From a phage, in the NCBI GenBank assembly GCA_012178725.1, contig GCA_012178725.1_3030.1: a stretch of DNA of 64,000 nucleotides; one strand, given 5' to 3'. Positions within the stretch are counted from its first letter, which is position 1, and each line of letters begins with the position of its first letter. The position numbers and the translations under genes were made by a program. A model generated the notes under the pieces. It saw only the letters and a program-made list of their open reading frames with translations. It was not told the origin of the DNA and searched no databases. This document shows positions 56,921 to 57,987 of this stretch, in pieces.

Positions 56921-57781
56921 TTACACCGCCATCTTTCCTTTAATTGGCGGGTGAGATACATAGTCGTTAAGAACAAAATTATGCGGCTTTGCGAATTGAC
57001 TCAACCAAAATACCTGTGATTCTGTGTCCCATTCATCAAATTCATCTGGGAATTTTAATTGTAATTCGCATAAATCCATAGGTTCACGACGCAAAATTTC
57101 TTTACATTGTTCTACGTGATTCATATAGATATGAGTATTACCGCCAGAAAATATCAAATCTCCCGGAATAAGATTACATATCTTAGCTACAATATGAACT
57201 AACGCAGCATATGATGCAATATTAAATGGAAGACCGAGGAAAACATCTACTGATCGTTGATACCACTGAAGGTCAAGGTATCCATTACGAACATTAAATT
57301 GATAGAACATATGACAAGGTGGTAATGCCATCTGCTTGAGTTCAGTTGGATTCCATGCTGAAATAATTTGACGCCTATCATTTGGCAGTTTTTTAATACG
57401 ATCAATAACTTCTATAATTTGGTCTACACCACCAAAATCACGCCACTGTTTTCCATAAATTGGACCAAGTTCACCGCTATGGTATCCTAAATCTTTTGCT
57501 TGATTTTCGTAATTTTCATCCCAGACTGTTTTGCCTTGAATTAATGAATCATGTTGAATTAATCGCAAATCATTGACATTTGTGCTTCCTGATAAAAACC
57601 ATATTAGCTCAGCAATGCATGCATTCCAGGCGAGCTTTTTAGTTGTTACTGCAGGAAAACCTTTGGTTAAATCCCAACGCAATTTAGTACCGAACAAAGC
57701 AATTGTTCCTGTGCCCGTTCGGTCATCGGTTTCATAGCCATTTTCAAAAATGTCTTTAATTAAATCTTGGTATTGTTTCAT
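56921..57781 (-). CDS. td: Thymidylate synthase, uninterrupted
   Basis: 286 aa from [25 protein letters not shown]...; continuous, no intron; in-frame upstream ATG at 57793 also possible. Confidence 0.97.
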   Translation of the reverse strand: MKQYQDLIKDIFENGYETDDRTGTGTIALFGTKLRWDLTKGFPAVTTKKLAWNACIAELIWFLSGSTNVNDLRLIQHDSLIQGKTVWDENYENQAKDLGYHSGELGPIYGKQWRDFGGVDQIIEVIDRIKKLPNDRRQIISAWNPTELKQMALPPCHMFYQFNVRNGYLDLQWYQRSVDVFLGLPFNIASYAALVHIVAKICNLIPGDLIFSGGNTHIYMNHVEQCKEILRREPMDLCELQLKFPDEFDEWDTESQVFWLSQFAKPHNFVLNDYVSHPPIKGKMAV

Positions 57782-57987
57782 TAGTTCATCCAAGAATATG
57801 TAGAAGGATATTTGGCAAAGTTAGGCTTATATCCTAATTTAACCATTTGTTTTGCTTTGCGAGTAAATCCTAAAGAACGCTCACCTTTAAGATATTGTTT
57901 TGGTGTCATAGGCCCTTGATGCATCTGCCGACAAATAAAAAGGGCCATAGCATTAGGAACATCCTTAACTTTTAATTTATTGCTCAT
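57781..57987 (-). CDS. Small basic hypothetical protein between frd and td
   Basis: 68 aa; ATG overlaps the frd TGA (ATGA) and its TAA overlaps the td ATG (TAATG). Confidence 0.55.

Follow-up and report, generated by a model that had tools for sequence, protein, structure and literature searches.

A small PHROG 9550 gene between frd and td and the alternative cassettes found at this phage junction

Gene layout at the frd–td junction

The window analysed in this study is a 64,000-nucleotide stretch of phage DNA (GenBank assembly GCA_012178725.1, contig GCA_012178725.1_3030.1), in which the genes of dihydrofolate reductase (frd) and thymidylate synthase (td) lie one after the other on the minus strand. 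A preliminary description of the window, made from the letters alone, placed a 68-aa open reading frame between them, and this ORF (hereafter named ORF68) is present with the same translation. The features of the junction are as follows.

57781..57987, minus strand: ORF68 (PHROG 9550 family), 68 codons from ATG to TAA, read from the bases and their translation
57984..58568, minus strand: frd (dihydrofolate reductase), 194 aa, placed by alignment to T4 and other frd genes
56921..57781, minus strand: td (thymidylate synthase), 286 aa, intronless and without I-TevI, placed from its ORF and alignment to T4
57984..57987, minus strand: ATGA, overlap of the frd stop and the ORF68 start (ORF68 ATG 57987..57985; frd TGA 57986..57984)
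57779..57783, minus strand: TAATG, 1-nt overlap of the ORF68 stop and the td start (TAA 57783..57781; td ATG 57781..57779)
57783..57986, minus strand: 204-nt segment missing in T4, delimited by the alignment of the window with T4

For frd, the ATG homologous to that of T4 (MIELVF...) was taken as the start codon rather than the upstream ATG at 58595 chosen by the ORF caller. Likewise, td was started at the T4-homologous ATG at 57781 (MKQYQDL...), and the upstream TTG of the ORF caller was set aside.

Both overlaps named in the preliminary description, ATGA with the frd stop and TAATG with the td start, can be read directly in the bases. Sequence alignment showed that the context upstream of this ATGA is the one that stands ahead of the td ATG in T4, and the final ORF68 codons TGG ATG AAC provide a Shine-Dalgarno-like motif, GGA(T)GA, 5–10 nt 5' of the td ATG. 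No promoter-like or terminator-like site was found within ORF68. A moron-type autonomous insertion would bring its own promoter and terminator, neither of which is seen in ORF68, and both neighbouring genes are overlapped. Stop/start overlaps at both ends on one strand instead point to a translationally coupled gene, and on this arrangement the proposal that ORF68 is embedded in the frd–td translational unit appears sound.

Accordingly arranged, ORF68 would be transcribed as part of the early frd–td unit, lacking any promoter or terminator itself, and would most likely be translated by termination-reinitiation coupling from frd, with the upstream sequence that in T4 serves td. At the TAATG overlap, ribosomes would then move on to td, a step that the GGA(T)GA motif at the end of ORF68 would assist.

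The direct overlap of frd and td in T4, which the preliminary description had mentioned, agrees with the T4 RefSeq annotation, where frd occupies 145109..145690 and td ends at 145112, leaving a 4-nt overlap. The same description regarded the presence of this ORF in T4 as fatal to its reading; the alignment of the window with T4 gave a single clean 204-nt gap between near-identical flanks, and ORF68 is missing from the T4 junction. The exact placement of the 204-nt segment is ambiguous within a 5-nt direct repeat, AATGA, the two copies of which lie at 57988..57984 and 57782..57778.

Coding evidence and the PHROG 9550 family

Comparison with its homologues indicates that ORF68 is a genuine, conserved, protein-coding gene. 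Its dN/dS ratio (Nei-Gojobori) is 0.155 against Marfa, 0.187 against CIP9, and 0.117 against JS98, with dS of about 0.9–1.2 for Marfa and CIP9. The product matched the PHROG 9550 HMM from end to end (E=1.3e-45, residues 1–68 against profile positions 1–68 of 68), and 15 columns are invariant across 18 aligned homologues with 49% to 99% identity to the window protein. No excess RNA folding was detected in a 247-nt transcript segment compared with its shuffles (z=-0.37), and an Rfam scan of ORF68 returned nothing above threshold, the sole match being tmRNA at 15 bits against a gathering threshold of 84 bits. RNA or regulatory explanations were thus ruled out by the folding score, the Rfam scan, and the scans for promoters and terminators, and it is this outcome, together with dN/dS of 0.12–0.19 and the PHROG 9550 match, that supports a real gene. 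An ORF opened by chance in a spacer might be suspected, given the small size of ORF68, its lack of a known domain, and the fact that the JS98, JS10, and SH7 records do not annotate it. However, the low dN/dS, the 15 invariant columns, and the homologues in unrelated phage families effectively refute this reading, and the chance of a 67-codon open frame at the 36% GC of the window was calculated here as about 0.008; it is almost certain that ORF68 is no such accident.

The product has a computed mass of 7.9 kDa, a pI of 10.3, and a net charge of about +10.5. An AlphaFold2 model built on a 24-sequence alignment (mean pLDDT 83.7) predicted helices at residues 13–24, 29–39, and 43–49, with an extended aromatic-rich tail after the third. 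The conserved positions of the family include K4, K6, P11, R20, K34, G40, M48, G52, Y53, and P55. Pfam gave no match for the window protein at E up to 10, and a Pfam-type scan of 24 family members at E up to 5 hit only scattered unrelated families, with no nuclease or NUMOD/HTH model among them. Sequence searches of Pfam, NCBIfam, PADLOC, and PDB with both the single protein and the 24-member alignment returned nothing meaningful, and PADLOC, which covers defence systems only, gave 0 matches for all 24 family members.

A tblastn search with the ORF68 protein found 238 phage records. About 135 of them, from Tequatrovirus and Dhakavirus, show at least 90% identity and mostly label the protein as hypothetical, and about 70 records of Phapecoctavirus type stand at about 43%. 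Between these lie the homologues of Marfavirus (about 80%), the Kanagawavirus CIP9 (68%), and Serratia phage 4S (60%). In the T4-like genomes examined, including JS98, Marfa, CIP9, and 4S, the homologue is always the gene directly before td, its stop codon overlapping the td start by 1 nt or 4 nt. When 1.84 billion representatives at 50% identity were searched with a profile, 11 matches resulted, of which one is spurious (P0026, a repetitive, eukaryote-like protein of 1402 aa), and a second family search gave 40 clusters at 90% identity; the spurious match aside, members are 42–108 aa long. Neither the window nor the 60 kb of T4 scanned yielded a further homologue or paralogue of ORF68. The description of ORF68 as an inserted or lineage-specific gene therefore stands in that T4 lacks it, but not as a restriction to one lineage, since the protein occurs in about 135 Tequatrovirus/Dhakavirus genomes at 97–100% identity and also in Marfavirus, Kanagawavirus, and Serratia phage 4S.

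Judged by its protein sequence, ORF68 is already known as an annotated hypothetical protein, with the same sequence in dozens of deposited genes. The PHROG 9550 proteins EPIMRB01_00235 (XLL18565.1), MN04_00225, Marfa gp177 (YP_009850431.1), and CIP9 gp059 are identical or 60–99% identical to it, have equal length, and share the position directly upstream of td, with no material difference. A literature search for the frd–td junction, RB32ORF229c, or phrog_9550 found nothing relevant. More distant members of the family occur in large virulent enterobacterial phages, such as phAPEC8 gp235 (YP_007348396.1), at about 43–49% identity (29–47% is also given for such homologues), and share with ORF68 the N-terminal KxK..VP and C-terminal LGYKP..Y.W motifs. 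Unlike ORF68, they carry 6–40 extra residues and lie in arrays of small genes. In phAPEC8 and four metagenomic contigs, the genes around these homologues are small hypothetical ones, with a PIF1-type helicase gene next to one homologue; among the neighbours examined, none was annotated or Pfam-matched as td.

Alternative alleles and recent spread of the cassette

The preliminary description suggested an alignment of the junction across T-even phages. Such a comparison bore out the ORF68 gap as the difference from T4, but it also revealed a junction with three alleles at which ORF68 is widespread. Tequatrovirus genomes carry either ORF68, a 115-aa ORF of PHROG 1928 (RB51 type), or nothing (T4 type). 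In a megablast search, a 45-nt probe of the T4 junction was covered in full in 32 records, namely T4, its laboratory variants, and a few others, while 222 further records matched the frd end only. All four partial-match records sampled (RB51, BCPEco_001, ime09, and JLBYU22) carry the 115-aa ORF between frd and td. The PHROG 1928 allele is thus probably the commonest in Tequatrovirus, where the allele counts are those of a short-probe megablast with four sampled records, from which the figure of about 220 RB51-type phages is extrapolated. The use of T4 as the norm for this junction did not survive the comparison: its empty junction, in only about 32 records, is the exception, and most other sampled Tequatrovirus records carry the PHROG 1928 ORF. 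The textbook ATGA overlap of T4 frd and td is a rare state, and most relatives hold one of two unrelated small genes instead.

The RB51 record labels the 115-aa ORF (746..1093 in the RB51 stretch examined) as 'RB32ORF229c ... flanked by 9 bp repeat' (RB51ORF234). It resembles ORF68 in its location at the Tequatrovirus frd–td junction and in the short direct junction repeats that flank it. In contrast, it encodes an unrelated protein, is bordered by intergenic spacers instead of overlaps with frd and td, and has a TATAAT-containing stretch just upstream of td. The two families co-reside in CIP9, Marfa, and 4S, where what lies between frd and the ORF68 homologue is also PHROG 1928, so that these more distant T4-like genera have the order frd, 1928, 9550, td; CIP9 has two tandem PHROG 1928 paralogues. 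Neither the surroundings of the distant 9550 members nor the rest of the window contained a PHROG 1928 homologue, and the idea that the two families travel as a pair outside T4-like phages was dropped on the former result.

The T4 state may have arisen by precise loss through recombination between the short direct repeats (AATGA here; 9 bp in RB51), which would restore the ATGA overlap. The direction of events, insertion or loss, is read from the distribution of the alleles rather than from a rooted phylogeny. Over the td 5' end, the window and RB51 show 0/287 differences although RB51 holds the 1928 cassette, and the cassettes have therefore been exchanged on a single td background. The frd–td junction is a defined, naturally polymorphic cassette site, which could serve engineering or recombination studies.

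The ORF68 allele itself is nearly invariant. Compared with eight Tequatrovirus/Dhakavirus genomes, ORF68 of the window has 0–9 differences in 199 nt (0–6 leaving out the low-quality sb4), whereas frd of the same genomes differs by 4–22% and the td 5' end by 6–25%. Against JS98, dS is 0.05 for ORF68, 0.54 for frd, and above 2 for td. In the three Dhakavirus genomes examined, mismatches continue until a few nucleotides before the ORF68 ATG and resume about 15 nt into td. Copies with at least 95% nucleotide identity number 137, and 114 of these are at least 99% identical to the window. Within Dhakavirus, ORF68 differs at 3–4 of 199 nt, compared with 12–18% in frd and 4–12% in td, and the gene is present in every one of the roughly 20 records that match JS98 with at least 94% identity (the sampled ones being Dhakavirus). 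Two controls behaved differently: the ORF68 homologue within Marfavirus diverges by 3.9–8.2% (flanks, 3.7–16%), and the PHROG 1928 cassette diverges by 3–6% between Tequatroviruses, similar to frd. Since these controls diverge, the nucleotide sequence of the ORF68 gene is not inherently fixed.

The simplest reading of near-invariant DNA on diverged frd and td backgrounds is that one allele has recently spread as a cassette through E. coli T-even phages, including Tequatrovirus and Dhakavirus, presumably by recombination in mixed infections via the short conserved junction sequences. Among the two cassettes, ORF68 alone bears this signature of recent inter-genus spread. Together with the three-allele picture of the junction, the evidence for this spread is what the present analysis adds.

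Within Tequatrovirus, frd falls into two sharply different allele classes (about 13% divergence overall, concentrated mid-gene). The ORF68 cassette occurs with both, and the window frd belongs to the EPIMRB01/sb4 class. The record of Shigella phage sb4 (PQ666542.1; 2501..3567 in the stretch examined) labels its ORF68 homologue truncated, lists td as two separate CDS, and annotates no intron gene. This record shows the most differences in ORF68 (9/199), which suggests assembly or sequencing errors.

A constraint on the nucleotides themselves, imposed for instance by RNA structure, by an antisense transcript, or by a site at which a protein binds the DNA, might equally hold 204 nt constant with no recent spread. 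The Dhakavirus copies fit it, as they differ at so few positions though every sampled genome has ORF68 and the flanks diverge. The folding score and the Rfam scan above speak against such an element, synonymous sites are free over longer distances (dS about 0.9–1.2 against Marfa and CIP9), and the Marfavirus gene has accumulated about half to all of the divergence of its flanks. A nucleotide-level element is accordingly considered quite unlikely.

T-even phages contain mobile group I introns (in td, nrdB, and nrdD) and free-standing homing endonuclease genes (seg and mob), which occur as near-identical copies in more diverged flanks and are patchy among close relatives. This population signature, known from general background, is like that of ORF68, and it lends some appeal to ORF68 as a degenerate homing endonuclease remnant, such as a DNA-binding domain, beside the intron-prone td. 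Endonuclease genes, both free-standing and encoded in introns, are also abundant near td and nrd in T-even phages, and the ORF68 product is small, basic, and predicted to be helical. Nevertheless, ORF68 has neither a nuclease domain of the GIY-YIG, HNH, or LAGLIDADG type nor NUMOD/IENR modules, and it differs from the mobile introns and homing genes in its lack of intron RNA structure and of any Rfam match. At 204 nt, it is far too small for known homing machinery. The family scan (E up to 5) returned no endonuclease or NUMOD/HTH match, no member (42–108 aa, the spurious 1402-aa match aside) is fused to a nuclease domain, and the full length is kept under purifying selection. Furthermore, ORF68 occurs with the td group I intron and I-TevI in JK08, PYps15T, and G3F8, whose cassettes are identical to that of the window, and without them in the window, EPIMRB01, and Dhakavirus. 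Mutual exclusion of ORF68 and the td intron/I-TevI is ruled out by the former three genomes, and intron homing fails to explain the distribution of ORF68, because the gene is found both with and without the intron. An endonuclease remnant is very unlikely on these grounds.

A sweep driven by the protein is a more speculative extension of the recent spread of the cassette. The small basic protein might favour its own transmission, as it would if it bound junctions that are empty or hold the other cassette and thereby skewed recombination during mixed infection. Alternatively, selection might recently have favoured it for some strong benefit, such as counter-defence against an immunity system common in E. 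coli. This suggestion arises because a near-invariant cassette sits on backgrounds differing by up to 25% in two genera, with identity tracts that end at the ORF68 borders; it is put forward as a long shot.

Possible roles of the product and neighbouring genes

The preliminary description tied the expression of ORF68 to folate and thymidylate enzyme synthesis, and the position of the gene invites the view that its product works specifically with thymidylate synthase, DHFR, or the dNTP-synthesising complex, as partner or regulator, or that it tunes td translation. A stop/start overlap directly upstream of td recurs in Tequatrovirus, Dhakavirus, Marfavirus, Kanagawavirus, and Serratia phage 4S; such strict adjacency across five genera could reflect a td-related role, and the C-terminal codons of ORF68 supply the Shine-Dalgarno-like motif of td. 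However, synteny in T4-like genomes is largely inherited and by itself no evidence of function. T4 and, by extrapolation from four records, about 220 RB51-type phages possess td and frd with no ORF68. The homologues with 29–47% identity in phAPEC8-like and other large phages reside in small-gene arrays or beside a PIF1-type helicase, with no td among the neighbours examined. It is because homologues occur away from td that a partnership with these enzymes is held to be improbable, and the functional tie first proposed was not upheld.

The fact that T4 and the RB51-type phages lack ORF68 suggests that the gene is dispensable. Considering the coding evidence, the alleles, and the distribution together, ORF68 is very probably a genuine, dispensable accessory gene of PHROG 9550 in the frd–td unit, one of two alternative cassettes, and recently spread. 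As to what its product does, a tentative guess is that early in infection the protein attaches to nucleic acid or to an acidic target of the host, acting as a non-essential host-interaction factor and not as a partner of DHFR or TS. This guess is based on its charge and size, its patchy distribution, and the transfer of the gene between unrelated phage families. ORF68 could in addition be screened at little cost for a part in host interaction or counter-defence, since its precise deletion would recreate the T4 junction.

Several neighbouring genes of the window deserve mention. On the td side, nrdA.1 (56355..56680, minus strand) has lost 1 nt from a T run (GATTTTATA -> GATTTATA) compared with T4 and EPIMRB01, which splits it into 61-aa and 36-aa ORFs; either the gene is truly a pseudogene or the homopolymer was misread in sequencing. 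On the other side, the interval from frd to gene 32 holds six ORFs in the window compared with three annotated genes in T4. Among these, the adjacent ORFs at 59496..59873 (125 aa) and 59932..60312 (126 aa), both on the minus strand, are paralogues with 31% identity (E=2e-14), which suggests that a gene at the frd.2 position was duplicated in tandem.
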